From a virus, in IMG/VR virus record IMGVR_UViG_3300009701_000002, positions 1-24,151 of that record: a stretch of DNA of 24,151 nt. One strand, written 5' to 3'. Made by a program: the position numbers and the translations under genes. This document shows positions 2,106-21,714 of the stretch, one piece after another (the first letter of the stretch is position 1; each line of letters opens with the position of its first letter). The notes beneath the pieces are model-generated. The model ran no database searches and was not told the origin of the DNA. It worked only from the letters and a program-made list of their open reading frames with translations.

Positions 2106-3202
2106 GACGCACCTTTTGCTTCCTTTGTCATTTTAATTAAAATGTCTCTGTACTTTGGTTTGCTGTAAAAATCTTTGAAAATAGAATGCTCTAATTTTAT
2201 GATTTTTTTGATAGTCATAACCATAATGTCGCGAGGAATTGTAGTGAAATACTCCATAAGAGCCGCTTCTTCGTCTTTAGTAAAAGGTTGTTTATCTGTT
2301 TCGCGCTGCACGATATAATCGCGTAAATTGTCACCGGTAATCCCTAAGAGGCTCGAAGCTATGTTTTCAGGGTTAGACCATGTCTTTACTTTATTTAACC
2401 CGCTGCCGTTAAGGACTTCTGCCCCAGTCAAAGGTTTGTCTACGTTTTTTAAATGGAGTTCGTAAGCGACACTTCGCTCCAGACCTATTATACCGTGCAT
2501 GAGCTGGCTTAAAATATTATTTGGAACTCCAAGTTTAAAAAGTCTGTTAAGACGCTCGTAAGACCTTCTATCGACTTTTACTTGAAGATCAAAATTACTA
2601 TGTTTGTCTTCAAGAAAACTGGGCTGTTCTTTCAAAAAGCTAAGGATTGTAGGCTCAAAACTATTGCCTTTGGCGTATTCCATAAACTCTTCAAAGCTAG
2701 GTTCGAGTTTTATGTGCACAAACCGGGACATAAGTGCTGTGTCATTGACGTCTGTTACAAAGTATTCGTCTGTTGGTGGGTTACCGGCAGCAATGATGTG
2801 GCAGTTTTTTGGCAGTTTAATAGTGTGAAAAGTCTTGTCTAACGCCAAAGAGAACATACCGTTTAAAACGTCGCGTCTCGCCCGGTTAAACTCGTCCAAA
2901 AAGATAATAGCGCCGCTATCGGGGTTTTGTTCGCAGTAACGGATTGCGTCGTTAAGCCATTTAGGAGTCGCGAAATTTGTGGATTTGCTGCCGTCGCCGT
3001 TATCAACAAACTCAGCTAACCCCAAAACATCCCCTAAATCGCTTTGAGTGCCTAAATATAGCGGGAAAAAGTGGTAACCTTTACTCTGGGCGTATTGTTT
3101 GACGATAGAGGACTTTCCGATACCGGCTCGGCCCCAAAGAAACGCCGTTGTTTGGGCTTCGAAAAGATACGGAAGAGCAGTAGTCAAATCCTTGATATTC
3201 AT
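2102..3202 (-). CDS. MoxR/AAA_5-type AAA+ ATPase
   Basis: Walker A GRAGIGKSS. Walker B IIFLDEFNRA. Sensor-1-like IIAAGNP. Lies one gene upstream of the VWA partner, with paralog P2 between them. AAGGAAAG SD. Confidence 0.85.
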   Translation of the reverse strand: MNIKDLTTALPYLFEAQTTAFLWGRAGIGKSSIVKQYAQSKGYHFFPLYLGTQSDLGDVLGLAEFVDNGDGSKSTNFATPKWLNDAIRYCEQNPDSGAIIFLDEFNRARRDVLNGMFSLALDKTFHTIKLPKNCHIIAAGNPPTDEYFVTDVNDTALMSRFVHIKLEPSFEEFMEYAKGNSFEPTILSFLKEQPSFLEDKHSNFDLQVKVDRRSYERLNRLFKLGVPNNILSQLMHGIIGLERSVAYELHLKNVDKPLTGAEVLNGSGLNKVKTWSNPENIASSLLGITGDNLRDYIVQRETDKQPFTKDEEAALMEYFTTIPRDIMVMTIKKIIKLEHSIFKDFYSKPKYRDILIKMTKEAKGAS

Positions 3203-3245
3203 AAACTTTCCTTTGGCCTATGGCCATAATTGTTTTAGTTTAATA

Positions 3246-3506
3246 TTAGCACACGGGGGTGTTTTTGTATAGCTTTTCGAGGTTGGCTTTGATTTCCTCA
3301 TCGGTTAATTTTGGAGGCCGAGGAGCAAGGTATCTAGCCATGGCTTCTTCCTGAGCTTTTCTAGCGGCGCGGGTTTTGGCGTTAATTGAGATTTTTTCGC
3401 CGCCCCAAAGAATTAAAATGGCAAGCAAACTATCTAAAAAACTAAAGAGACAAAGCAGGCCAAAAATTGTCATTCCGAGATAAGCTAGTCCGTTAATAAA
3501 TCCCAT
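3246..3506 (-). CDS. Small membrane protein (86 aa); holin-like is only a guess
   Basis: Hydrophobic N-terminus (GFINGLAYLGMTIFGLLCLFSFLDSLLAILILWGG) followed by a charged tail. Strong AAGGAGG SD. Confidence 0.7.
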   Translation of the reverse strand: MGFINGLAYLGMTIFGLLCLFSFLDSLLAILILWGGEKISINAKTRAARKAQEEAMARYLAPRPPKLTDEEIKANLEKLYKNTPVC

Positions 3507-3616
3507 AAAATCCTCCTTAAAAGCAAGCTAGGTTTTACATCTTGCGACAACCGGTTTGATGCCCGAGGGCTTGACGCGGTTAACCTTGCTTACATAATAC
3601 TTATCGGACGACATCG

Positions 3617-3850
3617 TCAGGACTTTAGGCTATTGTTGAATTTATTTTTAAAAAATTCTACTACCTTGTCTTCAACTGACTTTACATGACGCTCAAATCC
3701 TTCCAGATCGTTTATGGCTTTTGTCTCAATCTGGTCCAACAAAAGCCTTACACTGTTACGTAAATTCCCGACTATATGGATTTCTGCGCCGCTCGTACAG
3801 TTACGAAGCGTCTCTTCTAAAGTCTCTAGCCTCTGTTTGTAGTCTATCAT
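3617..3850 (-). CDS. Hypothetical helical protein (77 aa)
   Basis: ATGA overlap with the upstream gene. No recognisable motif. Confidence 0.6.
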   Translation of the reverse strand: MIDYKQRLETLEETLRNCTSGAEIHIVGNLRNSVRLLLDQIETKAINDLEGFERHVKSVEDKVVEFFKNKFNNSLKS

Positions 3851-4425
3851 ACGCTGCTCGTACGTTTAGAAAGGCCGCTAACAAGCTCCATGAACTCTTG
3901 CATCGTCATTTTACCGGGTAAAGGGAACATGACGTTCTCGTTATCCACTATTAAAGTCAGGCCGACTTCGTAGTACCTAGCCTTTTTAGTTTCCTGTGGC
4001 ACGACTTTAGTAACTTCAGGTTGTACGGCAGCCGGTATTGGTAATTTGGTGAACTTAGGTTTGACTTCTTGCTTTTTTAGTGACTTATTTTGGGCCACAG
4101 CTGACATTCCTATACTTTGCAAAGTCATTGTTATACCGCCAAGCGAACGAAGCTTCCCACGAGGACTGAATTCAAGCTTACCGATACCGGATTGGCTCAT
4201 GAATTTCAGCTCAGCGCCTAACTGCTCTCGGCTAAACTCAAAGCCTTCTTTAGCCAGTGCTGTCTTTAAATTATGAATAGAGATTCTTTTCGTTGAACGT
4301 TCCCGCAAGGCAAAGACATGGCACATAGCGTTAAACGTCTCAGAAGACTTGGCGCGGTCTTGGAGTCTATTTATTAGAGTCGTGTTACCGTTGGCTGCTG
4401 CGGAAGTTACCATTGAAATTTCCAT
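3847..4425 (-). CDS. Hypothetical protein (192 aa)
   Basis: The ORF-track start at 4446 is a TTG. The ATG at 4423-4425 is preceded by AAAGGA plus a 6-nt spacer, so I moved the start to 4425. Confidence 0.7.
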   Translation of the reverse strand: MEISMVTSAAANGNTTLINRLQDRAKSSETFNAMCHVFALRERSTKRISIHNLKTALAKEGFEFSREQLGAELKFMSQSGIGKLEFSPRGKLRSLGGITMTLQSIGMSAVAQNKSLKKQEVKPKFTKLPIPAAVQPEVTKVVPQETKKARYYEVGLTLIVDNENVMFPLPGKMTMQEFMELVSGLSKRTSSV

Positions 4426-4593
4426 TTTACATCCTTTGTTTACCAACCGTGATTGGTTGATGATTATGGTTTATGCGAAGGATGTGCCACAGTCAATGCG
4501 GTTATAATTGATCTGGGCTTAAGCCTGTGTCAAAAGTCTTGTCGGAGGCCGTAAAATGTGAGGATTGTGGAAAGCCTTTGTGACGTGCAGCTG

Positions 4594-4620
4594 AATAAAA
4601 AAGCCCCCGTGAGGGGGCGC
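4594..4620 (-). terminator. Rho-independent terminator (minus strand)
   Basis: Minus-strand RNA reads GCCCCC-ucac-GGGGGC followed by UUUUUUAUU. It sits immediately 3' of pentamer array A. Confidence 0.85.
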
Positions 4621-4715
4621 AAAACAAAACATAACTTAACTAAACTCAACGTAACGCAACTCAACGCAACTAAACGTAACTTAACTTAACGCAACGAAAC
4701 GCAACTTAACTGAAC
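4621..4715 (-). repeat. Pentamer array A: 19 contiguous NNAAC units on plus (GUUNN in the minus-sense RNA)
   Basis: Read directly: aaaac aaaac ataac ttaac taaac tcaac gtaac gcaac tcaac gcaac taaac gtaac ttaac ttaac gcaac gaaac gcaac ttaac tgaac. Phase is never broken. Lies between the stop at 4747 and the terminator. Confidence 0.95.
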
Positions 4716-4746
4716 GCAAAAATTTTATTCAATATAAATTAAGTAA

Positions 4747-5283
4747 CTATTTTTCTCCGCGAAGCAAAGCTAGGGCTTTTAACTCATAATTAGCTTGGGC
4801 AATATAAGTCGCGTCTTTTACAGTTAACTTTTTTGAACCGTAAGCGTGATTTAAAAGTTGTGCGATGGCGCTGGTAGCCAATATTTTCGAGGTCACGATT
4901 TGTTTAAGATCAGCGCTGACTTGATCAAGGTCAATGTGTTCTAAACGCTTCCCAGTTTTTTCAACAGCGCTTATTAATTTAGTCTTTGCCTCGTCGTTAG
5001 CTGCATTATATTGGTTCTCGCCGGCGATTAGCTCGTACCCTTCGCCGTGTAAACGTTTTAAGCGCTTTTTGAGTTGACCGCCGATTTGCGGCTCCATGGA
5101 GCGGATACAGCTTTTAATTTCTGAAAGCTCAAGAGTTAAATTATTCTGTGTGCACATATCTTGTAGCGCGGAGTCTGTTAACTGTACCCCAGCTTGGGCG
5201 CTTGTTAAGTGTGACATAAGAATTTTTTTAAATTCTTCTCGTTTTACTTTTTTAGTAGCGTTTTTATCTGTACTTGTTAACAT
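4747..5283 (-). CDS. Hypothetical helical protein (178 aa)
   Basis: ATG preceded by a perfect AGGAGG. Flanked by pentamer arrays B (5') and A (3'). Confidence 0.8.
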   Translation of the reverse strand: MLTSTDKNATKKVKREEFKKILMSHLTSAQAGVQLTDSALQDMCTQNNLTLELSEIKSCIRSMEPQIGGQLKKRLKRLHGEGYELIAGENQYNAANDEAKTKLISAVEKTGKRLEHIDLDQVSADLKQIVTSKILATSAIAQLLNHAYGSKKLTVKDATYIAQANYELKALALLRGEK

Positions 5284-5285
5284 CT

Positions 5286-5320
5286 AATCCTCCTAGGATT
5301 GGTTAAAAAAATAGCGTAGC
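5286..5320 (-). promoter_or_regulatory. 5' leader: SD-sequestering hairpin (AAUCCU-AGG-AGGAUU) plus a conserved 17-mer box
   Basis: Inverted repeat at 5286-5300 includes the SD. The 17-mer taaaaaaatagcgtagc (5304-5320) is identical to 5941-5957. Confidence 0.6.
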
Positions 5321-5370
5321 AAAACACAACGCAACATAACTTAACTAAACAAAACACAACTAAACTTAAC
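5321..5370 (-). repeat. Pentamer array B: 10 contiguous NNAAC units
   Basis: aaaac acaac gcaac ataac ttaac taaac aaaac acaac taaac ttaac, bracketed by atagc/gtagc pentamers. Confidence 0.95.
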
Positions 5371-5386
5371 ATAGCTGAGAAAAAAA

Positions 5387-5920
5387 TCATTTTACAGTAA
5401 ATCTGCCGTATTCTGGACGATAATCGCCTACGCCTATAAATTTACCACCAACGTCTAAAAGTTCAAGTAAAATCTCGGGCGGAAACTGCTTTTCATCTGC
5501 AATTATGACATTAAGCGTTCCCGACCAGTCTTCAAGCTTAGGCCAAATCCTTAATATTTTTTTAGTGCCGTTCATACCGACAAAAGCCTGATGTTTATTT
5601 ACCTCGCTCACCGGTTGCTTTAAAAGCATGGAATCCGTAATAAATAGCACCGAATCAACTAAATCGGCGTATCCGCTTCGCTTGCCGGGTTGTTTAATAC
5701 CTGAGAATTTTGCGGCAGCTTTTAATGTTCCTTTCCAGACTCGGCTCGGAATGGCGAGCTTACCTCCTTCTAAATACATACGGGCGTTAAACATTTCGTC
5801 TCCCGCTTCCCAATCCTCGTGCTTTGTGCGCGCCGGCTTAGTTTTGGCCGTAAGCATCGAATTGATGTTATTCATTAACAGAGGCGTTACTGACTTTATC
5901 CCGTAGCTGACCGTTTTCAT
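5387..5920 (-). CDS. Hypothetical protein (177 aa) with RAMP-like motifs (tentative)
   Basis: Start moved to the ATG at 5918-5920 (MKTVSYG...), preceded by AGGAGG. The ORF-track N-terminal extension runs through the SD. The motifs AIPSRVWKGTLKAAAK and the C-terminal GVGDYRPEYGRF resemble the RAMP KG-x-LR motif and glycine-rich loop. Confidence 0.75.
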   Translation of the reverse strand: MKTVSYGIKSVTPLLMNNINSMLTAKTKPARTKHEDWEAGDEMFNARMYLEGGKLAIPSRVWKGTLKAAAKFSGIKQPGKRSGYADLVDSVLFITDSMLLKQPVSEVNKHQAFVGMNGTKKILRIWPKLEDWSGTLNVIIADEKQFPPEILLELLDVGGKFIGVGDYRPEYGRFTVK

Positions 5921-5957
5921 ATACCCTCCTAGGTATTTCTTAAAAAAATAGCGTAGC
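5921..5957 (-). promoter_or_regulatory. 5' leader: SD-sequestering hairpin (AUACCU-AGGA-GGGUAU) plus a conserved 17-mer box
   Basis: Same layout as 5286-5320 with compensatory stem changes. The 17-mer is identical. Confidence 0.6.
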
Positions 5958-5997
5958 AAAACATAACAAAACTGAACAGAACTAAACTCAACTTAAC
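5958..5997 (-). repeat. Pentamer array C: 8 contiguous NNAAC units
   Basis: aaaac ataac aaaac tgaac agaac taaac tcaac ttaac. Confidence 0.95.
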
Positions 5998-6026
5998 ACA
6001 TTACTAAGTTACTTATCGGAAGGTTG

Positions 6027-6167
6027 CTAGGAAACTTTAACTTTTTTAGTAGAAATATTTTTATTGTCTAAATCTGGGAATTTCTCTAAAGACCTACGAC
6101 GGCAGTTGCAATCTGGTAGTTTTGAATTGCACCGTGGGTAGATGCAGGAGTTTTTATTAGAGTTCAT
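6027..6167 (-). CDS. Small Cys-rich ORF (46 aa; MNSNKNSCIYPRCNSKLPDCNCRRRS...), not in the ORF track
   Basis: Hand translation. ATG overlaps the stop of P3 as ATGA. Four Cys in CxxxxC...CxC spacing. Confidence 0.45.
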   Translation of the reverse strand: MNSNKNSCIYPRCNSKLPDCNCRRRSLEKFPDLDNKNISTKKVKVS

Positions 6168-6583
6168 ATTTTTCTCCTTATTGTACGTTCAAACTCATCC
6201 ATTTCGTTAATCACTTCTAATAACAATTCTTTATAATCACTGGCACAGTAGGAATGATTCGTACGGCAATAACAGGAAACGGCGAAAGCAAGGTCACTGT
6301 TGTCAAGCGTGGCACATTCCGAAAGGCGGGAGGCGCCAGCGATGTTCAAGTCGTAGGAGCTGGAGGCCTCATGGTAAACTAATAGTAATTCTTCTTTTGC
6401 GGCTTCGCCTCTGATGTATTTCTCTACGATTTCTAGATTTTTATTTATAATTTTATTTATTTGTTCATCTTTTGATTGTTTTAGCCAATGTCTTGTTGTT
6501 TTTACAAGAAATTTCCTTTGTTGTTTTTCGGTTAGGTCGTAAGCCTCATGGAGTTCTTTTAAAGACATGTCTTGGTCTTTCAT
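6164..6583 (-). CDS. Hypervariable-core paralog P3 (139 aa)
   Basis: Conserved termini. ATGA overlap with P4. AAGGAGAAAG SD embedded in the last codons of P4. Confidence 0.85.
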   Translation of the reverse strand: MKDQDMSLKELHEAYDLTEKQQRKFLVKTTRHWLKQSKDEQINKIINKNLEIVEKYIRGEAAKEELLLVYHEASSSYDLNIAGASRLSECATLDNSDLAFAVSCYCRTNHSYCASDYKELLLEVINEMDEFERTIRRKI

Positions 6584-7008
6584 ATCTTTCTCCTTATCTC
6601 TCGTTCAAATTCATCCATTTCGTTAATAACTTCTAATAAGAATTTTTTCGACTCGAATTGAACCCAACTGTTTGCTTTTACTATGAAACGCCAATTAGCT
6701 TCTGGAGAAAGAATTATCTCTTTTGCGGCGACGGCAAAAGCTACGCAAACGAATTCATTGCCGCGGTATCGAATGCCCTTGGCCAAGTTTCGTGCTTCTT
6801 CTAGTTCTTTTTTTGTGGATTGGCCTTTAATGTAGCGTTCTACGACTTCTAAACCTTTTGTTAAGATTTCGAGGGATTTTTTGTCTTTTACGTTTTCTAG
6901 TTCACCTTTTGCTACTTTGACAAGAAATTTTCTTAACTGGTTTTCGCTCAGGTCGTAAGCAGTGTAGAGTTCGTCTGAAGACATGTCTTGGTCTTTTTTG
7001 TTGTTCAT
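6580..7008 (-). CDS. Hypervariable-core paralog P4 (142 aa)
   Basis: Start moved to the ATG at 7006-7008 (MNNKKDQDMSS...). This matches the other paralog N-termini, and the longer ORF-track version runs into the terminator hairpin. Confidence 0.75.
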   Translation of the reverse strand: MNNKKDQDMSSDELYTAYDLSENQLRKFLVKVAKGELENVKDKKSLEILTKGLEVVERYIKGQSTKKELEEARNLAKGIRYRGNEFVCVAFAVAAKEIILSPEANWRFIVKANSWVQFESKKFLLEVINEMDEFEREIRRKI

Positions 7009-7042
7009 ATAATAATACATTACTACAGAATTATGATTATTC

Positions 7043-7075
7043 AAAATAAAAAAGCCAGGATTTTTAGTCCTGGCT
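7043..7075 (-). terminator. Rho-independent terminator after the capsid gene
   Basis: Minus-strand RNA reads AGCCAGGA-cuaaaaa-UCCUGGCU followed by UUUUUAUUUU. Confidence 0.85.
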
Positions 7076-7100
7076 CAAAATAGCTAAATTAAGCTATTAA

Positions 7101-8296
7101 TTAAGCTGATAATTGAACAACGCAGTTCCATCCCGGGGCACTACAGATGAGGTTCCCGTAATAGCCGATGCGAATCTCAAGGGCGTCGGCGTTACCAACA
7201 CGCAGTCCTTCGAGACCTTCCATTCCATACGTCAGGATATGCGGTACTTTGCCCAAGGAGCGAAGTTTCCACGTATTCATAGTAAGGAGGTACGCAGTCT
7301 GGGGAGGGCAGCTACGATCAGCCAACACGGTCACGCGACCATATGCGGACTGGAACGTAATACCTTCGAATGCGACTTCAACTTCATCGTGGTTGACTTG
7401 AACGTACTGGACTTTAGCGCCCAAAGCGTTTACAAGTGCGGCATACGATGCGAAGTCCATGATGCAAAGGTCTGGTTTTCCGCCTTCACGGTTCAAGAAT
7501 GCCAACGCGTTCGTCAGACCTTCCTCGATGGTGTAGGCCTGTGCGTTATAGCGACAGCCAGCCAAACGAGTAGGATCAGCAGAACGGTTAACGCCCCAGA
7601 ACGAGTCGTTAGCAGCAGGGCTAGTAACAGGCAACCAAGCAGCTAAGCCGCTCAAAGCGAGGTACGAGCCAGTGTTGCTAGCGCCAGTTGCCGGCAAGTC
7701 ACCAGAAACGGTGAGGTAAGCCAATCCAGTTCCGATAGCCCAGTTACCAGACAAAGTAGCAGCCGAAGCTGTTCCGTTGATTACACCGGTTGCACGGTTA
7801 ACTGCAGTGATCAGCACGGTGTCCGTCGAAGGAGCTCCACCATCAGAAGCCGAAGCAACTAACAGCATTCCAACTTCGAAAGCAACGATTTGCTGAGCGT
7901 TGGTCAAAGGAAGGGTTACACCACCGGGTGCAATACCGCCGACTTGGCTAGAAGCAGCCGAGGAAACGCCACGGGTAGCAGTACCAGAACCAAACAACTC
8001 AAAAGCGATGTTGTTAGTAATGTTACGGAAACCGCCGTCCATTTGAAGCTTAGCAGCGTCAACAAAAGCGCCTGCATTTGTCTTAGTCTGTTCCATCAAC
8101 AAGTTAGTGATAGTAACTAATTGATAGTCTTCGATTACGTACACGAAGTACGAAACAAGTGCTGTAGGCGTTTGCTGTGCTTGCGCGTTAGCAAACTGGT
8201 GAGAACGACCCTGGGGGGTTCCATACTCAAGGGGGACTGGTATGTATTTACCAGCGAACCCGTCTGGGCTTTCATTTTTTGGTACAAGGGCTAAGA
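7101..8296 (-). CDS. Major capsid protein, exon 2
   Basis: The frame stays open upstream of the ORF-track GTG (8144) to 8296 without any start codon (..FLALVPKNESPDGFAGKYIPVPLEYGTPQGRSHQFANAQAQQ..). Position after portal and scaffold, higher GC than neighbours, terminator downstream. Confidence 0.8.
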
Positions 8297-9030
8297 CAAA
8301 TTGTTATCGTGCTGGCTTTTTATCCTGCACTTCTAATGCTTAGAGAGCTTTATTAGACTTTCGTCTATTTTGCTCGACAGTTAAATACTGTAAGTTCCAA
8401 GGAACATGCAGACCTTTAACGTTCTTTCCTTGAAGCGGTATAATATGATCTACTTCACAGCCTTCTGGACAATTGATATAGATTAATTCCATATCTCTGA
8501 GTTGTGTTTCAGATAGCCAGTAAGGAGTAGCATTCAGCTTAGCGGCTTGGTACTTTCGGGTTTTAGCTAATACTTTTTTATTATTAGCTTTATTCCAATT
8601 TGACTTACTATTTTTTACGGCTTGGGGGTTTTCTTTGACGTACTTGTCTTTGAGTGCCTTTGATCGCTCTGGATTCTTTTGTCTCCAAGCTGTTCCGTAT
8701 TTTTTAAGTCTACCTTGCTCGTTTTTGCATGCCTTACACCAACTGTTAAGCCCATTTAGATTTCTAGCGTCTTTCGAAAAATCGCTAAATTCTTTAGACT
8801 TTGTGCATTTAGTGCAAGTTTTCATACCCTTCTTCGCATTAGTTCGGCGTACATTTTCAACTCGTAAAAGTTGCCTACCACTCTTGGTACTATTTTATTC
8901 TAGCATTATCCCTGCTAGGTTCAAGTACTACGCTCTACACTGGTACAGTCTTATTATGGACCATACTTAGCACGGTATTAGCATTTCAGCCTTCACCGTT
9001 TTTGGTTGGTTTTAAATCCCCGCTTAATCC
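8297..9030 (-). mobile_element. Group I-like self-splicing intron (734 nt) carrying an HNH homing endonuclease ORF
   Basis: - P1 helix: exon AAAUCCCU (9038-9031) pairs with intron GGGGAUUU (9021-9014), with a G-U wobble at the splice-site U.
- The intron ends in G (8297).
- Joining the exons restores the frame: ..KENP-F-LALVPK.
- A 7-bp helix, CUAAUGC (8842-8836) with GCAUUAG (8339-8333), loops out the ORF. Confidence 0.75.
8340..8825 (-). CDS. HNH homing endonuclease (161 aa)
   Basis: N-terminal CxxC...CxxC zinc motif. C-terminal EVDHIIP...HVPWNLQYLTVEQNRRKSNK (the H-N-N/H core). Has its own SD (GAAGAAGGG). Confidence 0.85.
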   Translation of the reverse strand: MKTCTKCTKSKEFSDFSKDARNLNGLNSWCKACKNEQGRLKKYGTAWRQKNPERSKALKDKYVKENPQAVKNSKSNWNKANNKKVLAKTRKYQAAKLNATPYWLSETQLRDMELIYINCPEGCEVDHIIPLQGKNVKGLHVPWNLQYLTVEQNRRKSNKAL

Positions 9031-10378: not shown

Positions 10379-12268
10379 TTATGCTTGGGGGGTTGCGTTA
10401 GGGACTAAAGGACTCTGTGGCTGTGGTTGGGGTTGGGCCTGAGGCGGATTGGCCATAGGCATAGGTGGAGGCATGGCGGCTTGTTTAATGGCTTGTAATT
10501 GGTTAAAGAAATCACGGAGTTTTTCAGCCTTTGATTCTTCTAACTTGGCCTGGGTATATAGATTTATATACTGGGTCGTCAGCGTTGTGGCTAAGGCTAT
10601 GTCCATAAACGGATCTGGCGGGGTGTATTTACCAGACTCTACGATTTCGTCTAGGATTTGTAAGATACGTTCTTCTGAGGCGTTAGCAAGCTTTTCGACC
10701 TGCTCTAGATCTGGGTAGTCTAATAGCCTCCTGCCTTCTTGGAGGCTTACCATACCGCTTTGGACCATCTCGGTGACTTTTTGGAGACGGCCTGCTGGGT
10801 CTTTAGGTAGACTACTCTGGGTGAAACACTGGATTACGAAATCGTCGTGTATTAACGCCGCTTTAGGAAGGTCAATTTCTTTTGTACCGTTTTTATTAGG
10901 ATAGACGGTCTGATACTCTCCGTCGCGAATTGCGATATCTTTAGCCAAATCAATAACCTGATAGGCAAGATCGATAAAGCAGTTATCATACCGACGGGAC
11001 AGAGACGCGAAACGATCTGTTGAAATATCATCATAGGTCCTGATCGCTTCACCACTATCAAGACCTTGTGGCTTTTGAGAGGACGCCTGCAAAGCAGACA
11101 CTCCGGATTGCTGATAACCATATTGTATAAGCTTGTCTCGTTCTGCGTATAACTCGGGCGCATTACAAGGAGCAACCTCGTAACTCGGTTTAGTTCCACG
11201 ATACTTGACAATGACTCCGACCTCGTTATTATGAGCGGCAGCCATAACTTTTGAACCGTCCTCTTGAAATACTCGAGGAACACCAACAAGCTTAATAGCA
11301 CGAGATATAGTGAACAAAATACTGTTAAGCTCCATTTGCGTACCCATGAGTTGTTCAGCGACTCCCTGGGACCAAAAGCCAAGTAACCGAGGGCTATAAT
11401 GGAGAAAAGTAAAAGGAAAGCGATCTTTAGTATATTCCTCATCGATTAAGCTTCCTGCGCTACACGCCAACGTATGCCGTCCGTCATTGACATTTTTACC
11501 AGACGGTAAAGACCAGCCCTCTACAACCATTACTAAATCGGATACGGTTTTTGAGCTATCAGCGGAATTGTCTGGGAAAGCTTTTGCCGCCATAGCAATC
11601 TTGTCTTTAAATTTAGGGAAATTAGCAAATAAGACGTCCCTATCGATGAGTTTGATCCGGTATATACGTCTCGGCTCTCCGTACATGCTTTCGTTGGGGT
11701 CTACAAGTAATTCCGTTAATAGGACTCGCTCTAGGCCTACTTTTCTGTCAGGGGTCTCAAACGTATGGAATACGCCTGTCCCTGCCACTAAAGCGTCCCT
11801 AAGGACTATAGGAGCCAAGTCATAAGCCTTTGTCTGGTAAAACTCTCCCAAAAGGAAGTTGTTTAATTTCTTGGCTAGGTTTCTTTGCTTATAATCAGCG
11901 TTGTCAGTTAAAAACACCGGTTGGGGCCTGGATTGCGAGATACGCGATACCAGGGTATCTACTACGCTTTGGATGAGGTTAAACGTAGGCCGCTCCATTG
12001 GAAGGCCGTAATTCTGATCCATTTTGCTAATATTGTTACCGGCAAAGGAATAGAGGCTTTGGTTACCATAGAGTCTTGCGTAAACCGCGGTTTGTCTATA
12101 CCGGTAAGTCTGTGTTTCTTTTAAATATGCTGCTTTGGTAAGCATCTCCGCTGCGCATTTATCGCTGTCTTCGGCTTCCCACCATTTTGCTAGCGTAGTC
12201 GTTTCGTCGACGTTACGCGTCTTCATGGTGATTTTAGAGGGCGGTCCTTTGGCGTTGCTGACTTTCAT
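10379..12268 (-). CDS. Portal (head-tail connector) protein (629 aa)
   Basis: Size and position upstream of scaffold and capsid, downstream of the terminase region. P/Q-rich C-terminal tail. Assigned by synteny only; no diagnostic motif was readable by eye. Confidence 0.65.
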   Translation of the reverse strand: MKVSNAKGPPSKITMKTRNVDETTTLAKWWEAEDSDKCAAEMLTKAAYLKETQTYRYRQTAVYARLYGNQSLYSFAGNNISKMDQNYGLPMERPTFNLIQSVVDTLVSRISQSRPQPVFLTDNADYKQRNLAKKLNNFLLGEFYQTKAYDLAPIVLRDALVAGTGVFHTFETPDRKVGLERVLLTELLVDPNESMYGEPRRIYRIKLIDRDVLFANFPKFKDKIAMAAKAFPDNSADSSKTVSDLVMVVEGWSLPSGKNVNDGRHTLACSAGSLIDEEYTKDRFPFTFLHYSPRLLGFWSQGVAEQLMGTQMELNSILFTISRAIKLVGVPRVFQEDGSKVMAAAHNNEVGVIVKYRGTKPSYEVAPCNAPELYAERDKLIQYGYQQSGVSALQASSQKPQGLDSGEAIRTYDDISTDRFASLSRRYDNCFIDLAYQVIDLAKDIAIRDGEYQTVYPNKNGTKEIDLPKAALIHDDFVIQCFTQSSLPKDPAGRLQKVTEMVQSGMVSLQEGRRLLDYPDLEQVEKLANASEERILQILDEIVESGKYTPPDPFMDIALATTLTTQYINLYTQAKLEESKAEKLRDFFNQLQAIKQAAMPPPMPMANPPQAQPQPQPQSPLVPNATPQA

Positions 12269-14325: not shown

Positions 14326-15762
14326 TTAGTCGTATTCACCTTTTAGCCATTTTGAATAAGAATCTTCTTGTTGGTATCCTTCGAGTTCTTTTTCAAACAT
14401 GCCGGTCTCTTGTAACTCGGCCCATTCCTTTGTACCCCACTTTGGCTTTTCTGGACCCGGGGGCTGATGGGTAAATGCGTAGCTTTCTTTGAAAGCGTAA
14501 AGAACGGCGTCAATTATGTCGCTATGGGGTTTTTTCTTTACCACGATTTTATTAGGAGTAGTTCTGTCCCAATCGATTTGAATTAAATAACTGTCTTGCG
14601 CAAAGCGGGAATTGTTTTTGGCTTTGAATTTACCGAGTCTCAAAGAATCGTTTAAAAGTTCGACGTTTTCTTGTTTACGGAGTTTATCTGCCGGCTCTAC
14701 GTTAATGGCGTGCCTGCGCCTGACTTCTTCGGCTAGTTTTTTACCCAAGCCGCCTTCATCCATGACAACTTTTGATATGTCGTATTTTTTGTGCATACGG
14801 TTCATTTGTTCTACGAGTTCGGTCAAGCCTTGTTTTTTAGTAATACACTCTTCTACCAAGTAAGTCTCAGGGCTAGTATCTGACCATGCCAATATTGCTA
14901 TGGCGTCGGCGTCGTTATAGCCTATATCTACGCCCATTATGTAACTCCATGCATGACCAGAAGGGAGGTCTTGGTAATGGTTTTTAGCGGCGCTGTACCT
15001 TACCCATAGAGACTCGACATCCAGTACCCACTGATTCCGGTATTCACGTAAAAGCGTGGGGTTGTCTGGTTGCCATTCGCGTTTCTTTATTATGTCCGCA
15101 ATGAAAGACTCTGGGTCTGGCATATGAGGGTTATCTAACAAAGTCCATTCATGGTGGCTATACCCGTATTTGTGATTCTTTGTTACGTCAAAAAAATAGC
15201 CTTGAGGAACTGGTCCTGGAGTACCGGTTAAAGCTAACCAGCCGTCCGTATAGTCGGCTATGGACGGAGTTAGGACGTCATCTACTAGGGACTGGAGATG
15301 TATCCCAAAGTCTTGCGCTTCGTCTATACCAACTCCGGGGTATTTACGTCCTTTGAGGCGTTTAATGAAGTTTTTCATGTCGGCGCCAAATAGCCTAAGG
15401 GTAGATCCGTTTGGGTGTTTCATAGTCAGCTTTGACTCGGTGAAACTACAGCCTATTTGGTATTTGTCGTTTATTTCTTGTAATACCGGCCATAGAATCT
15501 CTCGAGCCGACTCAAGAGTAAGTCCTAAATAGATACACTGAGATTTTGGATGTTTTTCTAGTGTTTTAAAAAATCTCAAAGCTAGCCCATTAGTTTTACC
15601 GGCGCGTCGGGAGCACTGTGCACTTATGTAACGTGAGGTGTCTTCAACAAAAGAGTTTTGCTGAGGAAAATTCCCGCTAAGTCTAACTTCATTTGAAATG
15701 ATCTTGGAATTACGCTTAACGATTTCGTTTAAAATACTGGTTTTGCTGCTGTTTTGACCCAA
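14326..15762 (-). CDS. terL: Terminase large subunit (478 aa)
   Basis: Walker A-like SRRAGKTNG. Walker B-like VGIDEAQDF. C-terminal nuclease-like MGVDIGYNDADAIAIL. TTG start directly after the upstream TGA; no in-frame ATG before the Walker A. Confidence 0.85.
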   Translation of the reverse strand: MGQNSSKTSILNEIVKRNSKIISNEVRLSGNFPQQNSFVEDTSRYISAQCSRRAGKTNGLALRFFKTLEKHPKSQCIYLGLTLESAREILWPVLQEINDKYQIGCSFTESKLTMKHPNGSTLRLFGADMKNFIKRLKGRKYPGVGIDEAQDFGIHLQSLVDDVLTPSIADYTDGWLALTGTPGPVPQGYFFDVTKNHKYGYSHHEWTLLDNPHMPDPESFIADIIKKREWQPDNPTLLREYRNQWVLDVESLWVRYSAAKNHYQDLPSGHAWSYIMGVDIGYNDADAIAILAWSDTSPETYLVEECITKKQGLTELVEQMNRMHKKYDISKVVMDEGGLGKKLAEEVRRRHAINVEPADKLRKQENVELLNDSLRLGKFKAKNNSRFAQDSYLIQIDWDRTTPNKIVVKKKPHSDIIDAVLYAFKESYAFTHQPPGPEKPKWGTKEWAELQETGMFEKELEGYQQEDSYSKWLKGEYD

Positions 15763-17792: not shown

Positions 17793-19925
17793 TTATACGT
17801 CAGCTAAAGTTTTTCCTATTTTAGGAATAGCTTCTAAATCAATACCTTCGAGATGGACGGTATTCACCATGGCGTCTTCTAATAATAAAGCGACATTTTC
17901 GGCGTCTCTTTCAAAACACTCTACTACTAAGCTATCATGGACTTGTACTACTAACTTACAATCTATTCCCGCAATCTTACAATTCTTGTGAAAAGCTATG
18001 GCGGAGCGGTTCACTATACTAGCACCGGTGCTTTGAATCCGGTGATTAACCGCTAAGTTTAATATATTGCGGATTTCATATGGTAATTCGGCATGCGGTA
18101 TGCCTTTATAGACTTTATCAATCCGCTTAGCTTCCGGCATTCTGCGGGGACGGCCAAAAAGATTTGTGACTTGCCCTTCAGATTTAGCCATTTTGTGGCT
18201 ATTGAGCATCATTTCTCGGACACCAGGGAACCTCTCAAAATAGTTGTCAATGTCCTTTTGAGTATCTTCGATGCTTTTACCCGTTGTTGGGGCGAGCTGG
18301 TGCGGAGTTGCTCCGTAAGTAGACGCAAGTGCAATAACCTTTGAAAGATCTCGCAACCTCTTGTACTTGACCCCAAACGCATCTGGGCTGCCTTCTTTTT
18401 GCGGCGTGCAATCCGTTTTGTCATATACTTCCATCCCTATGACTGAATAAAAATCGTCTGAACCTTTAAAAGCGTTTAACAATCTCTTATCTTGACTAAA
18501 ATAAGCAAAAACCCTCGGCTCGAGCTGTGAATAATCTGCCCCGACAAATACCTTCCCCGGCCTAGCTGTAATAAACGACTTGACGCGTTTATCGTCTCTA
18601 GGTAAGTTTTGAAAGTTTGGATTTCTACTAGAGTACCGTCCAGAAGTTGTTCCGTGCTGCAGGAAACTGGGCCGTATAATGCCATACTGAATCCTCTGTT
18701 CTATGCCTTTTACATAAGTGTTTAATATTTTGTATTTCCTTTGAAATTCAAGAAGTTTTTCAATCCATTTGTGCTTGGGGGCTAATTTGGCTAAAGTCTT
18801 TTTATCAACCGCTATATAACACCAGGGATCTTTTATTTTAGTCCCAGATTTTTTCTTACCGTTAACAACGGAAGGCGGCATTAAACTATTACCAACCGCG
18901 GCCCGGCAAGACCGCATAAAATCCCTACGTGGACCAGGGCCGTAAGGAATTTTTAAATTGAGGTGCTTGCAAACCGCCTTTCCCCCGTCCGTTAGTTTAT
19001 CATAATCTAACCCCATTTTTTCAAATAACAACCAAGCTAACTGCTGGCTAGACCCTATGTTAAAAACGTTAGTTTTTTTATCGCCCGGGTACTTCTCTTT
19101 TACGTGGGGGGTTATTTCTTTGTAGACAAAATCTTTGGCTTCTGCGCATTCTGCTTCTAAATTCTTTTTAAGCGTCGTAAGGACTTGGTTATCTACTTTT
19201 AAACCAACTGTGTTCAGCTCGTAAGTAGGTCCCCTGAGAAGAGGCATGCTTTCGTCTTCGTAAAAAAATTTATCAAGCCCTTGTTCGAAAAGCTCCGGTA
19301 CCAATCGGTAGAACAAATTATAAGTCAATAAAGCGTCTTTTGCGCCGTATTTGCCGATCAGCTGGGCGTCTCCTTTAAAAAGTTCAAAAGTTTTTTTAGT
19401 GAGTTTACCGCCGTTTTTGACAATTGAATCGTGTAAGTCGGTCTGCTCATCAGCTGCGTCTTTTCCAAAATAATGCTTTCCAAGCTCTTTTAACCCGACT
19501 TTTCTGTTTTCATCGAGTAAATGTGCAAGAATCATAGTGTCTGTGTGAAGCGCTTCTATTAATTTGACCTTGAAATTAGATTCCGCCATCTTGCAATCAA
19601 AAACACCGTTGTGCATCACAAGCTTCTTTTGCGACAAAAGTGACATTATTTCCGAAATATGTCGACTTTCAACAGAAGTTTTTACCATTGATTGGGCCAC
19701 GGGGTCCCATTGCGATAATACCACGTAATACGCAGTAGTTTCTTCCCAACACATAGAAAAACCAATGACTTGGCTTTCTTCCGACAAACCAGTCGTCTCG
19801 CAATCGTAAGCCACGTATTCGGCTTTTTGCAAAGCTTCTATTACCGGCTCAATGTCTTGTGCTTTGTCTATCACTTTCAGCGTATACAATTTGTTCCCCA
19901 TTATACGGTACGGATTGGTAAGCAA
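17793..19925 (-). CDS. Family A DNA polymerase with 3'-5' exonuclease domain
   Basis: - Exo I: AYDCETTGL.
- Exo II: MHNGVFDCKM.
- Exo III: YGAKDALLTYNLF.
- Pol motif A: GADYSQLEPRV.
- Pol motif B: RDLSKVIALASTYG.
- Pol motif C: VVQVHDSLVVE.
- The start at 19925 is a TTG; the ATG at 19901 is an alternative. Confidence 0.9.
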   Translation of the reverse strand: MLTNPYRIMGNKLYTLKVIDKAQDIEPVIEALQKAEYVAYDCETTGLSEESQVIGFSMCWEETTAYYVVLSQWDPVAQSMVKTSVESRHISEIMSLLSQKKLVMHNGVFDCKMAESNFKVKLIEALHTDTMILAHLLDENRKVGLKELGKHYFGKDAADEQTDLHDSIVKNGGKLTKKTFELFKGDAQLIGKYGAKDALLTYNLFYRLVPELFEQGLDKFFYEDESMPLLRGPTYELNTVGLKVDNQVLTTLKKNLEAECAEAKDFVYKEITPHVKEKYPGDKKTNVFNIGSSQQLAWLLFEKMGLDYDKLTDGGKAVCKHLNLKIPYGPGPRRDFMRSCRAAVGNSLMPPSVVNGKKKSGTKIKDPWCYIAVDKKTLAKLAPKHKWIEKLLEFQRKYKILNTYVKGIEQRIQYGIIRPSFLQHGTTSGRYSSRNPNFQNLPRDDKRVKSFITARPGKVFVGADYSQLEPRVFAYFSQDKRLLNAFKGSDDFYSVIGMEVYDKTDCTPQKEGSPDAFGVKYKRLRDLSKVIALASTYGATPHQLAPTTGKSIEDTQKDIDNYFERFPGVREMMLNSHKMAKSEGQVTNLFGRPRRMPEAKRIDKVYKGIPHAELPYEIRNILNLAVNHRIQSTGASIVNRSAIAFHKNCKIAGIDCKLVVQVHDSLVVECFERDAENVALLLEDAMVNTVHLEGIDLEAIPKIGKTLADV

Positions 19926-21714
19926 CTATCTCAGTTTTACGGTCGGCTTTGCGCTTATTTGTGGCTATTGGTAAAAAGTAGTCAAAAGCTGTTTTTTCAT
20001 CCTGAGTCATATCTCTAAGCAATTCCCTCTCAGAATCAAAATAAAAATAATAAGGCACGTCTTCTTTAATAACGTCTTGTTTTGCTTTTTTGTGCCGGAT
20101 TTTGCAAAATTTAAACGCGGTGACGGTTGGGCATGCTTCTTGGCTGTGACACCGCTTCAACGGCTGCCACAAAGTAATCAAATAATCACAATAACTTTCG
20201 AAAAACAAAGTCCCATAAGCGGCGTCTTTGTTAAGCTCTAAATCTCCAATTCCCGCCTTTTCCCGACTTGTCTGGGATTGCATGACTAACAAAGTGTTAG
20301 TCTGGACTGCAAAAGCTTTCATACTATGGCAAATAGTCATAAGGTCTTGGTTTTCGTCGTTACTGCCTTTCTTTTTTAAAGCGCCTATATGATCTATAAC
20401 AACGCAGCCGACTTTATTCCCAGTGGTTTTTTCCCAGTCTTGTATATGTATTTTAATTTCTTCTAACGATAAATGACGAAAATTGCCTTCGCTGTCATAA
20501 TTGCTCATGATGTGGACTTTTTTGTTCATCGTCGTATCGCCGCAAGACATTGTCGCCCAACGATCCGCTATCTCGTGCGCGGGTTGCTCTAAAGGTATGA
20601 AAAAATGGTGGTAATCAGGGTTTTGTTGACTAAACCACTGAAACATGTTTAAAGCAAAAGCTGTTTTACCTACCCCTGACCCAGCTACAAGGCCTATGAC
20701 TTGTCCTAACCTAAACCCATGCACAGTGTTGTCTATACGTTTGTGACAACGAAACGGTTTACCTTTCACGGTATCCACCGAGCGGCTCAATATTGACTCA
20801 ACCGTGTCCGATAAAGGCTCTTTTGTGTCGTTATTTTCTAATTCGTATGTCCATATCTTTGAAACAATGCCTTCAGCATATCCTAACCGGTGCACCGGGG
20901 ATCGAGACATTGCTTTGGCGCTGTTAACAAGGACTCTCAACGCCTCTTCTCTAGTAAAGCCGTTGGCCAGCATTATATGACCAAGGCGGTAATCGTTTTT
21001 GCTACGGTCTGTGGTATCGCCGGACCATATAGCTTTTGCTTCATGATTTTCGGCGATTAACCTACCAAATTTTGGCGGCAAGACATCACTAATGGTAACA
21101 TCGTTTGGTATTTGGTGCGTCGTGTTATAATGCTGCTCACAGTAAGCTTCATCGGCAATTGTTATAGGAGGCAGTAGTTTTGTTAATTCCTCACAAGTAT
21201 ACTCAATTTGTGAATCGTGGATAATCTCGCATTTCAACGGTTCATTTTCAACTTTTGTGTTAAAGGTACCGGGATACCGCATCAATTGAAAAATCTGTCC
21301 AACAGCTTCATCAGTATTTAACAACCGCATAAACCGTCTGGACAGCCTTAAATAGCTTTTAGCGTCTAAATCTGATACTTTCCAATAGGCGTGTATACCG
21401 TTGCCAGAATCGACTATGCGCGTTGGAATAATACCGACTTCGCCGATTTTAGCAATGAAGTCATCTTTTGAAGCATAATTCTTAGACTTACAATCATAAT
21501 CAACAAACACAAAATCAAAGACATCAATATCCCGACCGCTCGTAATCCTACTCTTTTCATAAAAAAGCGGGTAGTTCGGTAAATAGTAGACATTATAACC
21601 TTGCTCATTGTACTTCCTTATTTGTTCATCATTAAACTGACCTTCAAGGACCCTTCGAACTGAGGGGTCCTTTTTAATCAACCAGTCTGGGGCTATAAGT
21701 CTAAAAAGAGTCAA
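19849..21714 (-). CDS. Primase-polymerase (AEP-like) fused to an SF4/DnaB-like helicase (621 aa)
   Basis: N-terminal FVFVDYD and DSGNGIHAYW (AEP-like). C-terminal Walker A GSGVGKTAF and Walker B CVVIDHIG. TTG start is the only option before these motifs. Confidence 0.8.
   Translation of the reverse strand: MTLFRLIAPDWLIKKDPSVRRVLEGQFNDEQIRKYNEQGYNVYYLPNYPLFYEKSRITSGRDIDVFDFVFVDYDCKSKNYASKDDFIAKIGEVGIIPTRIVDSGNGIHAYWKVSDLDAKSYLRLSRRFMRLLNTDEAVGQIFQLMRYPGTFNTKVENEPLKCEIIHDSQIEYTCEELTKLLPPITIADEAYCEQHYNTTHQIPNDVTISDVLPPKFGRLIAENHEAKAIWSGDTTDRSKNDYRLGHIMLANGFTREEALRVLVNSAKAMSRSPVHRLGYAEGIVSKIWTYELENNDTKEPLSDTVESILSRSVDTVKGKPFRCHKRIDNTVHGFRLGQVIGLVAGSGVGKTAFALNMFQWFSQQNPDYHHFFIPLEQPAHEIADRWATMSCGDTTMNKKVHIMSNYDSEGNFRHLSLEEIKIHIQDWEKTTGNKVGCVVIDHIGALKKKGSNDENQDLMTICHSMKAFAVQTNTLLVMQSQTSREKAGIGDLELNKDAAYGTLFFESYCDYLITLWQPLKRCHSQEACPTVTAFKFCKIRHKKAKQDVIKEDVPYYFYFDSERELLRDMTQDEKTAFDYFLPIATNKRKADRKTEIVAYQSVPYNGEQIVYAESDRQSTRH

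Follow-up and report, generated by a model that had tools for sequence, protein, structure and literature searches.

Three unbroken runs of a five-base unit punctuate a two-gene operon on one strand of this viral DNA (the window, by which we mean the whole stretch analysed, 24,151 bases), and they raise the question of what a fixed triplet, repeated in strict phase and separated by two variable bases, is doing in the transcript of a phage. An earlier note on this DNA knew of no described element with such a structure. Two 2026 preprints (bioRxiv 10.64898/2026.04.26.720920, 10.64898/2026.04.26.720927) have since described one, the Viral Interference Programmable Repeat (VIPR). The element is best assigned to VIPR, and its fixed triplet, GUU (GUY in its clade), is what differs from the published GGY. 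As a whole, the locus is very probably a phage-encoded VIPR, in which arrays C, B and A are the vrRNA genes and accompany vipr (gene X) and a vap1-like gene (gene Y). By homology with the VIPRs of Escherichia phage SUSP1 and of a prophage in Pseudomonas fulva, it would silence a competing element.

Table 1. Features of the VIPR locus in the window, with positions counted from the first base.
Feature	Position	Strand	Description	Basis
Intrinsic terminator	4597..4620	-	GCCCCCUCACGGGGGC then UUUUUU; starts 2 nt past array A	Terminator scan, RNA fold
vrRNA array A	4621..4715	-	(GUUNN)19, 3' of vap	Phased-run scan, sequence, shuffle control
vap (gene Y)	4747..5283	-	178 aa, predicted remote Vap1 homologue; winged-helix-like core at about residues 37-86, then long helices	
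Array B 3' extension	5303..5320	-	GCUACGCUAUUUUUUUAA	Flank comparison
vrRNA array B	5321..5370	-	(GUUNN)10, between vipr and vap; NN = AA UA GU UU UA AA AU GC GU UU	
vipr (gene X)	5387..5920	-	177 aa, predicted RAMP-fold protein; ATG at 5920; phrog_4652	
Array C 3' extension ("tail")	5940..5957	-	GCUACGCUAUUUUUUUAA	Flank comparison
vrRNA array C	5958..5997	-	(GUUNN)8, 5' of vipr; NN = AA GA UA CU CA UU AU UU	

The arrays, which read as uninterrupted phased NNAAC runs on the plus strand, were recovered by a phased-run scan with the 19, 10 and 8 units first reported and were absent from shuffled sequence; no further phased run of at least three units was found in the whole window. G, U and U occupy positions 1-3 in 37/37 units, so the invariance claimed for the triplet stands, while in minus-strand sense position 4 takes all four bases and position 5 is A, C or U and never G. 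The pattern (GTTNN)7GTT gave 16 matches, 16/16 of them lying in arrays A, B and C, and no match was obtained from 100 dinucleotide-preserving shuffles; a 4-unit version matched 28 times versus 0.02 expected, and Tandem Repeats Finder called period 5 for the arrays. Arrays B and C have a common first unit, GUUAA, and a common last unit, GUUUU, and are followed by an identical 18-nt 3' extension composed of two in-phase GCU units and then a U-run. An independent Logan assembly of SRR5829580 (L331) is 100% identical over window positions 3747-5671, which include arrays A and B, so that an assembly artefact does not explain the arrays.

On the minus strand the order is C-vipr-B-vap-A. The gene limits and strand given earlier were correct on re-reading, and the arrays are noncoding and lie on the operon sense strand, as had been proposed. 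Directly past array A lie a GC hairpin (4603-4618) and then a T-run, confirming the strong terminator reported there; this terminator is predicted to close the operon and would cap array A RNA at its 3' end. Both vipr and vap are preceded by CCTAGGAGG, and arrays B and C end 22-33 nt 5' of the vap and vipr start codons without a common upstream motif. A promoter scan at the locus found no sigma-70-like promoter adjoining any array. With this placement near start codons and no common upstream motif, the arrays may not be transcribed independently. Folds predicted for the RNA of each array region, in a test without pseudoknots, were no more stable than shuffles (z +1.1 to -1.8), the terminator hairpin excepted, and for this reason a structured tail is unsupported apart from that hairpin after array A. 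Rfam over 4300-6400 returned sub-threshold noise only, with no hammerhead ribozyme. The neighbours of the locus are phage structural and replication genes, and megablast of window positions 3000-9000 against cultured phages gave no match.

Gene X is, on sequence homology and a predicted structure, a Vipr protein, a minimal RAMP homologous to SUSP1 Vipr. Its family profile matched PDB entry 36pp_D, "SUSP1 Vipr protein", over the full length (E 8e-21), and the single sequence also matched SUSP1 Vipr (E 8.9e-9), with the G-loop GVGDYRPEYGRF aligned residue by residue. BLASTP between the two gave 32% identity over the C-terminal 115 residues, G-loop included, and the overall identity is ~25-32%. 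The AlphaFold model of X (pLDDT 92.6) was compared with the PDB by Foldseek, where 50/50 listed matches were CRISPR RAMP subunits, with Cas7 and Csm3 on top and a type VII Cas7 as the best match (E 1e-6). Searches of X and Y against Pfam, NCBIfam and PADLOC returned nothing meaningful, with no defence or Cas family match.

Gene Y is predicted to be a remote Vap1 homologue, a relationship visible with profiles only. It is kept directly 3' of vipr in the related loci L124, L125, L128, L129 and L130 at 25-44% identity. Elsewhere, its profile matches only ORFs directly 3' of vipr, SUSP1 vap1 among them, and hhalign of Y against the Vap1 group gave 95.7% probability (E 9.4e-9). BLASTP of Y against SUSP1 Vap1 found nothing, and a word-indexed search with Y alone recovered only itself. 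The AlphaFold model of Y (pLDDT 82.9) had weak Foldseek matches, to winged-helix proteins.

According to the preprints (bioRxiv 10.64898/2026.04.26.720920, 10.64898/2026.04.26.720927), VIPR performs CRISPR-like RNA-guided DNA silencing against rival phages, in which the NN dinucleotides pair with dsDNA with one base skipped per unit and were shown to set the DNA target. In the text of the same preprints, as distinct from the logos in figure S17 of the discovery preprint, which cover seven types, vrRNAs are described as (GGY-NN)n with 9-16 and up to 30 units, with NNNGG, YNNNG and NNNNG as alternatives; their genes are placed in the intergenic DNA that flanks vipr, on the strand of vipr itself, and a GUU or GUY triplet is not named. 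Also expected of a VIPR system are vrRNAs that appear as discrete small RNAs and copurify with Vipr, an invariant, structured 3' tail past the repeats, and natural targets in rival mobile elements instead of the phage's own genome. For SUSP1, one Vipr protomer per repeat was reported to form a helical filament, and pairing with RNA is also possible (bioRxiv 10.64898/2026.04.26.720927). On direct re-reading, the SUSP1 locus carries pentamer arrays both 5' and 3' of the genes, on the same strand.

Like the type II VIPR of SUSP1 and the P. fulva prophage (bioRxiv 10.64898/2026.04.26.720920, 10.64898/2026.04.26.720927), the present locus has a phage-encoded RAMP protein of ~20 kDa, a Vap1-like gene directly 3' of it and same-strand pentamers in which three bases are fixed and two are hypervariable. 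Unlike either of them, it has one array between vipr and vap, and its arrays abut ribosome-binding sites. Compared with SUSP1, Vipr is identical at only about a quarter to a third of its residues and Vap is recognisable by profile comparison alone; in place of the SUSP1 pseudoknot tail there is a short 3' extension, for which no stable fold was predicted by the pseudoknot-free test.

By analogy with the SUSP1 and P. fulva systems, transcription, processing, RNP formation, the skip rule, a DNA rather than an RNA target, and silencing would apply here as follows. A minus-strand transcript would carry the arrays, and each fixed triplet would be bound by one Vipr protomer, whose thumb and glycine-rich loop might flip out the three bases. 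Stacked protomers would then form a helical filament with 8, 10 or 19 subunits, in which the two variable bases of each unit would be offered for pairing with the DNA target. Under the published one-base skip, should it apply here, the targets would be 23, 29 and 56 bp long with the pattern NNxNNx..., and a competing phage or other mobile element bound in this way would be silenced transcriptionally, an effect that the winged-helix Vap may enhance. The two bases regarded in the earlier note as free would thus be no spacer, for in VIPR it is these bases that carry the guide information and pair with the DNA target.

The backbone subunits of Class 1 CRISPR-Cas likewise assemble along a guide RNA, with bases flipped out at regular intervals. 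The predicted fold of X resembles these proteins (Cas7, Csm3, Cmr4 and type VII Cas7) in its RRM core, thumb hairpin and glycine-rich loop. However, the locus is unlike Class 1 CRISPR-Cas in having a single RAMP gene and no repeat-spacer array, other cas genes (such as those for Cas5, Cas6 or the large and small subunits) or adaptation module (Cas1/Cas2). Its repeats are 5-nt units instead of 25-40-nt repeats with spacers, and the period of 5 nt, with three bases sequestered and a non-contiguous guide, departs from the 6 nt with one flipped base of those systems. Membership of Class 1 was rejected on the one RAMP gene, the want of any PADLOC or NCBIfam Cas match and the 5-nt units.

TRAP also binds RNA triplets placed 2-3 nt apart through a repeated protein surface. 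The earlier note drew on this format for its idea of an RNA-protein wrapping or filament system, and one part of that idea holds, since a fixed triplet with a 2-nt interval is the format read by a protein polymerising along RNA in the SUSP1 filament. The comparison with TRAP or an attenuator does not, because X is Cas7-like. Unlike the beta-sandwich ring of TRAP, the predicted structure of X is a RAMP fold; unlike the closed 11-mer, a Vipr-type assembly would be an open helical filament with its length set by the RNA; and unlike in attenuation, the bases between triplets in VIPR would carry information, with DNA targeting as the output. A TRAP-type ring attenuator, which would call for a TRAP-fold protein and a leader switching between terminator and antiterminator, was rejected on the RAMP fold, the lack of a Pfam match to X and the position of the longest array 3' of the genes.

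The association of the arrays with Vipr extends well beyond the window. Among 120 viral contigs with (GTTNN)8 or longer, a Vipr homologue was present in 14/19 with diverse NN and in 0/101 simple-repeat contigs (Fisher p = 1.7e-14), which bears out the co-occurrence with homologues of X that the earlier note had suggested looking for. Over 88 Vipr loci, 245/245 arrays lie on the vipr strand, and a role in RNA is favoured over DNA priming on account of this co-orientation. All relatives have an array-vipr-array-vap core, with a third array 3' of vap only in some, and the cassette sits after PolA in certain relatives and after capsid genes in others. GUY is constant among the relatives and NN is entirely different, while array format and gene order are kept.

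Against the guide reading, X might, like TRAP, T4 gp32 or RegA, simply bind arrays within the mRNA that encodes it and control the translation or stability of vipr and vap, in which case NN would hold no targeting information. The short distance from arrays B and C to the two start codons would suit such an autoregulatory operator, as would the failure to detect a separate promoter and the first and last units common to arrays. However, the longest array, A, lies past the last gene, where control of translation is impossible, and complete NN turnover with GUY and gene order kept is the signature of a guide. In addition, the NN bases set the DNA target in the homologous system, and X is a RAMP and not a TRAP-like ring protein. 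We therefore consider a purely regulatory function unlikely, while autoregulation could coexist with VIPR targeting, as a by-product of filaments forming close to ribosome-binding sites.

The fixed triplet itself can be compared with the residues that read it. In SUSP1 Vipr, R138 and W178 sandwich G2, D177 reads G1 and R179 reads Y3 (bioRxiv 10.64898/2026.04.26.720927). Alignment to that protein shows both G2-sandwich residues changed in the window's clade (R138 to W126, W178 to Y167), and H17 replaced by N in X; X keeps D177 as D166 and R179 as R168, and both proteins have the G-loop motif GxGD(W/Y)RPxxGRF. The SUSP1 alpha-bundle contacts the skipped base and the non-target strand through K33 and R39 (bioRxiv 10.64898/2026.04.26.720927). 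These align to no basic residues in X, whose alpha-bundle is ~10 residues shorter, and the one-base skip is for both reasons not assured. [quoted passage not shown]

The triplet follows the Vipr lineage as GGC, GGT, GTC, GTT or GCA. Viprs 49-75% identical to X go with GUU or GUC (the GUY handle) and distant ones with GGU, GGC or GCA, which provides a natural specificity-swap series with candidate determinant residues identified; the predicted protein-bound repeat handle thus extends beyond GGY. At least five separate Vipr lineages carry GUU arrays, and one further lineage uses GCA. A one-residue rule linking triplet and pocket in all lineages was rejected, as R138 is retained and residue 178 is variable in other GUU lineages, and distant alignments are unreliable. 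The register could also be G2-Y3-N, which would place the arrays in the published YNNNG class with other guide bases.

We tentatively suggest, as a possibility well short of the confidence placed in the VIPR assignment, that GUY-handle VIPRs form a distinct orthogonal branch. In such a branch, U at position 2 might be read via the W126/Y167 aromatic pair, and the guides might reside inside the operon mRNA, bounded by in-phase handle units and without a pseudoknot tail. A different skip, register or target type is possible there because the alpha-bundle is shortened, and the triplet might serve as a lineage "address" against cross-loading by co-infecting VIPRs. VIPR, which came to light only very recently, is a minimal, PAM-free form of RNA-guided DNA recognition that has been proposed to be older than CRISPR. 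If handle specificity is true, co-resident VIPR systems could remain insulated from one another, orthogonal protein-guide pairs could be obtained for multiplexed use, and a structural model of triplet recognition would be directly testable.

Targets were sought under the NNx rule of the preprints with exact seeds spanning 8-10 units, and among the matches listed from viral, metagenome and genome collections no natural target was convincing; this negative result is weak, as it covers exact seeds and the matches listed only. For array A, exact seeds gave 0 matches in viral contigs (units 1-10 and 8-17) and 0 in metagenomes (units 5-14). One match of units 5-14 in genomes, to an uncultured archaeon, was set aside as chance, since its flanks do not extend (27/38). 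Array B gave only chance-level matches, namely one AT-rich match in viral contigs (units 1-9) and two unrelated AT-rich matches in metagenomes (units 1-10), and the 98 matches of array C equal the chance expectation. Self-targeting within the phage did not rise above the shuffled-guide null, and no cross-targeting was found between the window and six related loci with skips of 0-2. When 8-unit seeds of array A were combined with extension scoring, one borderline candidate, L311, was obtained. It matches array A units 2-12 at 22/22 nt, and a 165-aa ORF is its putative target. The match is in frame and the skipped base falls on the wobble position, an arrangement that has been published for DNA targets. 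However, this candidate matches only the 5' units 2-12, and according to the 2026 VIPR preprints target engagement by SUSP1 filaments starts at the 3' end.

These results also bear on whether a VIPR-like RNP might have some other output, such as an RNA target, a different skip or register, or a decoy titrating a rival VIPR or a host factor. The altered triplet and pocket residues, the shorter skip-measuring alpha-bundle, the ability of SUSP1 VIPR to pair also with RNA, and the absence of an NNx target in the exact-seed scans, among the matches listed, would all be compatible with such an output. It is nevertheless improbable in our judgement, given the conserved helix-1 lysines of X, the retained Vap1-like winged-helix partner, the low weight of the target scans and the in-frame, wobble-skipping character of L311.

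The weakest alternative is a DNA-level element, in which the (GTTNN)n strand would act as an array for primase recognition or as a replication origin: 5'-GTT-3' is the recognition triplet of T4-type primase, the phage encodes its own primase-helicase (19849-21714) and an AT-rich tract adjoins array A, but this part of the earlier note found no support and is very unlikely, because every array is co-oriented with vipr, arrays co-occur with the RAMP protein and not with primases, the triplet changes with the Vipr lineage, the cassette occupies different genome positions in relatives, and the primase-helicase gene lies 14 kb from the arrays. VIPR thus remains the preferred reading, and scans with the (GTYNN)n pattern pick up Vipr loci with high specificity.

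The locus formed by genes X and Y and the three pentamer arrays is a Viral Interference Programmable Repeat (VIPR) locus, in which X corresponds to the RAMP protein Vipr and Y to the accessory gene vap. Gene X found no match in Pfam, NCBIfam or PADLOC and was placed in phrog_4652, a PHROGs family without assigned function. A profile of X aligned with 14 homologues matched a single family among the PDB sequences, 36pp "SUSP1 Vipr protein", over its full length (E 8e-21). X alone also matched SUSP1 Vipr (E 8.9e-9), and in that alignment GVGDYRPEYGRF, a C-terminal motif of X, stands opposite GVGDWRPRFGRF. When the AlphaFold model of X (pLDDT 92.6, pTM 0.84) was searched with Foldseek, all 50 matches listed were CRISPR RAMP backbone subunits, the best among them being type VII Cas7 (E 1e-6), followed by Csm3, Cmr4 and Cmr6. 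The family of X is extensive: 4,311 clusters (50% identity) reach E <=1e-3. The earlier note had proposed an RNA-protein filament, which was right in kind but missed the RAMP identity of X and took as free the two bases that form the guide; its analogy with TRAP is unsupported, since the matches of X are Vipr and CRISPR RAMP subunits.

Published VIPR systems comprise Vipr (~20 kDa), the vipr-accessory gene vap and guide RNAs (vrRNAs) built from 9-16 pentamers in tandem, or as many as 30 in natural examples, in which a conserved GGY is joined to a hypervariable NN and the tract is followed by an invariant 3' tail (bioRxiv 10.64898/2026.04.26.720920, 10.64898/2026.04.26.720927). Elements of this format, of which the earlier note knew no description, have thus been described. 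Each repeat is bound by one Vipr protomer, which sequesters GGY (bioRxiv 10.64898/2026.04.26.720927), and NN pairs with dsDNA, with one target base skipped per unit, giving an R-loop triplex and silencing transcription; rival phages, satellites and prophages carry the natural targets, and the skipped base is usually the codon wobble position (bioRxiv 10.64898/2026.04.26.720920, 10.64898/2026.04.26.720927). In the SUSP1 locus, re-read here, vipr and vap1, in that order, are preceded by a (GGTNN)11 array and followed by three further arrays. By homology to these systems, the arrays of the window would be expected to be transcribed, processed and loaded, and to follow the skip rule in finding targets.

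The three arrays of 19, 10 and 8 unbroken, phased units were confirmed, as were the coordinates of both genes and the strong terminator directly after array A, and no further NNAAC run of at least three units was found in the whole 24,151-base window. Read on the minus strand, positions 1-3 are G, U and U in 37/37 units, while position 4 can be any of the four bases and position 5 is A, C or U. An eight-unit pattern gave 16 matches, all within the three arrays, against none in 100 dinucleotide-preserving shuffles, and a four-unit pattern gave 28 against 0.02 expected; Tandem Repeats Finder (TRF) also reported period 5 at the arrays. Because positions 3747-5671, including arrays A and B, are 100% identical to an independent Logan assembly (SRR5829580), the arrays are not an assembly artefact. 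A scan of the window found no sigma-70-like promoter adjoining any array, and the array regions matched no Rfam family and were no more structured than shuffles in RNA folding.

Features of the window (coordinates on the plus strand)
Feature	Position	Strand	Remarks
Array A	4621-4715	minus-strand sense	19 units; phased NNAAC run on plus strand
Array B	5321-5370	minus-strand sense	10 units; phased NNAAC run on plus strand
Array C	5958-5997	minus-strand sense	8 units; phased NNAAC run on plus strand
Gene X (vipr)	5387-5920	minus	177 aa; RBS CCTAGGAGG at 5921-5939
Gene Y (vap)	4747-5283	minus	178 aa; RBS CCTAGGAGG at 5284-5302
Terminator of array A	4597-4620		GC-rich hairpin and T-run, directly 3' of array A
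Cys-rich ORF	6027-6167	minus	46 aa; CIYPRCNSKLPDCNCRRR
Terminator	7052-7076		3' of capsid gene
SU10-like major capsid protein	7101-8144	minus	
Portal	10379-12268	minus	
Large terminase	14326-15762	minus	
DNA polymerase A	17793-19925	minus	
Primase-helicase	19849-21714	minus	
Endonuclease VII-like gene			in window
MoxR-like ATPase gene			in window
140-155-aa paralogues	65-523, 1668-2105, 6164-6583, 6580-7044, 23168-23647, 23644-24096	minus	
Paralogue fragments	3-68, 24099-24149		

When viral contigs were scanned for (GTTNN)7GTT, at least 120 loci matched. Among the 120 matches listed, 101 were simple tandem repeats and 19 had diverse NN bases, usually in several clustered arrays; a Vipr homologue lay beside the arrays in 14 of these 19, against 0 of the 101 simple repeats (Fisher p = 1.7e-14), which bears out the co-occurrence of such arrays with homologues of X. 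In 88 Vipr-encoding loci, arrays with six or more perfect G[G/U]Y-NN units numbered 245 on the vipr strand and 0 on the opposite strand, as predicted for a transcribed RNA element and not for a strand-neutral DNA site. The alternative reading, in which GTT served T4-type primase as a priming array or origin, is therefore unsupported.

Relative to published work, the window locus is a VIPR variant with five differences: the handle is GUY instead of GGY (by the preprint text, figure logos aside), the residues of the G2 pocket are altered in X, its alpha-bundle is shorter, the guides are embedded in the operon beside ribosome-binding sites, and a structured tail is not evident. GUU, GUC and GUY are absent from the running text of both preprints, figure logos aside. 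GUU is used by the window, L128 (Vipr 60% identical to X) and L130/L131 (49% identical), and five relatives with Vipr 60-75% identical (L124, L125, L126, L129 and L132) have GUC arrays that contain an occasional GUU unit, so the handle of the clade is GUY. The 58 Vipr loci found by protein similarity (21-35% identity over the best segment, one short match being higher) use mostly GGC or GGU, with GCA in one lineage; GGY is found in the cultured phages BPS15Q2, SUSP1, LESphi2, Trine and DSL-LC04, and in a rough neighbour-joining tree GUU arrays fall into five or more separate Vipr lineages. GCA, which adds a third fixed triplet to GGY and GUY, was seen in L276 (IMGVR_UViG_3300016469_000170, 379-714), where a Vipr homologue is preceded by three (GCANN)8-14 arrays, each with a GC hairpin after it; its sister loci L251, L256 and L261 have few or no arrays with the detector used.

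In SUSP1 Vipr, H17 and D177 read G1, R138 and W178 read G2, and Y3 is read by R179 with E71, M72 and C173 (bioRxiv 10.64898/2026.04.26.720927). Mapped onto X, D177 (D166, G1) and R179 (R168, Y3) are retained, both residues of the G2 sandwich are changed (R138 to W126, W178 to Y167) and H17 becomes N17; the clade of the window has W or F, Y, and N or H at the equivalents of 138, 178 and 17. R138 and H17 are present in 7/7 GGY loci of the residue table. Other GUU lineages differ from this clade: they retain R138, and position 178 is S, L, N or D. A single residue rule for the triplet does not emerge across lineages, and alignments between distant members are unreliable. The simplest register for GUY units is G1-U2-Y3 followed by N4N5; alternatively, the register may be G2-Y3-N/NN, which would belong to the YNNNG class, named with NNNGG and NNNNG among alternative repeat classes in the methods of one preprint (bioRxiv 10.64898/2026.04.26.720920).

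Gene Y has homologues (25-44% identity) directly 3' of vipr in every close relative recovered, and its family profile, run against all ORFs of the loci fetched to that point, matched only genes in that position, including LESphi2 P21_8, Medea1_0008, BPS15Q2_58 and SUSP1 vap1. Profile-profile comparison with the Vap1 group gave 95.7% probability (E 9.4e-9, 133 columns). The AlphaFold model of Y (pLDDT 82.9) shows a helix-turn-helix and beta-hairpin at residues 37-86, then long helices, and its Foldseek matches were weak (best E 0.04) and mostly winged-helix DNA-binding domains. Type II Vaps are predicted to bind DNA, and vap1 has been shown to enhance protection (bioRxiv 10.64898/2026.04.26.720920).

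The array-vipr-array-vap core is present in all relatives of the clade, with a third array after vap in some only, and 15-35 nt separate the end of an array from the ribosome-binding site that follows. In each clade locus the arrays share their first one or two units and their last units: GUUAA and GUUUU-GCUAC-GCUAU-U7 in arrays B and C of the window, and GUUGA-GUUGC and GUCGU-GUCAU-U8 in L128. Such common ends resemble 5' and 3' handles that frame a variable core. In L129 (Logan ERR11523662, 2074-3028; Vipr 60% identical), five GUC/GUU arrays occur, several in tandem with a conserved 21-nt spacer (GCATTCTATAAAGTTTAGCTC), a layout that resembles a multi-guide array. The NN bases differ wholly from relative to relative, and a GGC-type relative combines a 100% identical Vipr (P0016) with completely different arrays per sample (L133 and L135 vs L134), indicating guide turnover at constant protein. 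In some phages the cassette follows DNA polymerase A directly, in others it follows capsid genes (L124, L132 and L329, Gordonia phage Trine, compared with L125 and the window), and these differing positions suggest a mobile, moron-like module. In Trine (MH271318.1), a (GGCNN)12 array (L329 3116-3175) lies inside the CDS annotated as gene 40, a hypothetical protein directly 3' of the Vipr homologue gene 41; this annotation is probably spurious or overlaps a vrRNA.

Targets were searched for with the published NNx rule. Guides of the window and six relatives gave no match above a shuffled-unit null in the window and those relatives, and the matches listed in exact-seed scans of public collections did not exceed chance level. 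With array A, eight-unit seeds hit 33 loci, the best extension being L311 (IMGVR_UViG_3300035698_002850, 2093-2125), where units 2-12 match at 22/22 guide bases (28/38 overall). The match lies in frame (peptide KASAKKTYADA) within a 165-aa ORF that adjoins a DNA methyltransferase, every skipped base falling at a wobble position; corrected for the number of tests, p is estimated at ~0.01-0.06. In SUSP1, the filament takes hold of its target starting at the 3' end (bioRxiv 10.64898/2026.04.26.720927), whereas the matched part is the 5' half of array A. L311 is a possible natural target of borderline significance, to be taken as a lead only.

The window, a fragment of a phage genome, has all its large genes on the minus strand, where the order after the 7052-7076 terminator is two paralogous small ORFs, the Cys-rich ORF, C, X, B, Y, A and the terminator. 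The Cys-rich ORF immediately precedes array C and shares its transcription unit, and no homologue of it was found among the fetched loci. The palindromic RBS CCTAGGAGG, which can form a small hairpin in predicted folds, is kept 5' of vipr in the window, L124, L125 and L132, and 5' of vap in the window. Finally, at least six full paralogues of one 140-155-aa protein occur within the 24-kb window, two of them (6164-6583 and 6580-7044) upstream of array C. Their N-terminus (KDxxMSxxELYxAYDLTExQxRK) and C-terminus (LLLEVINEMDEFERxIRRK) are conserved around a hypervariable centre, and one copy carries an (AAYAA)-like repeat at 23732-23888, as detected by TRF.
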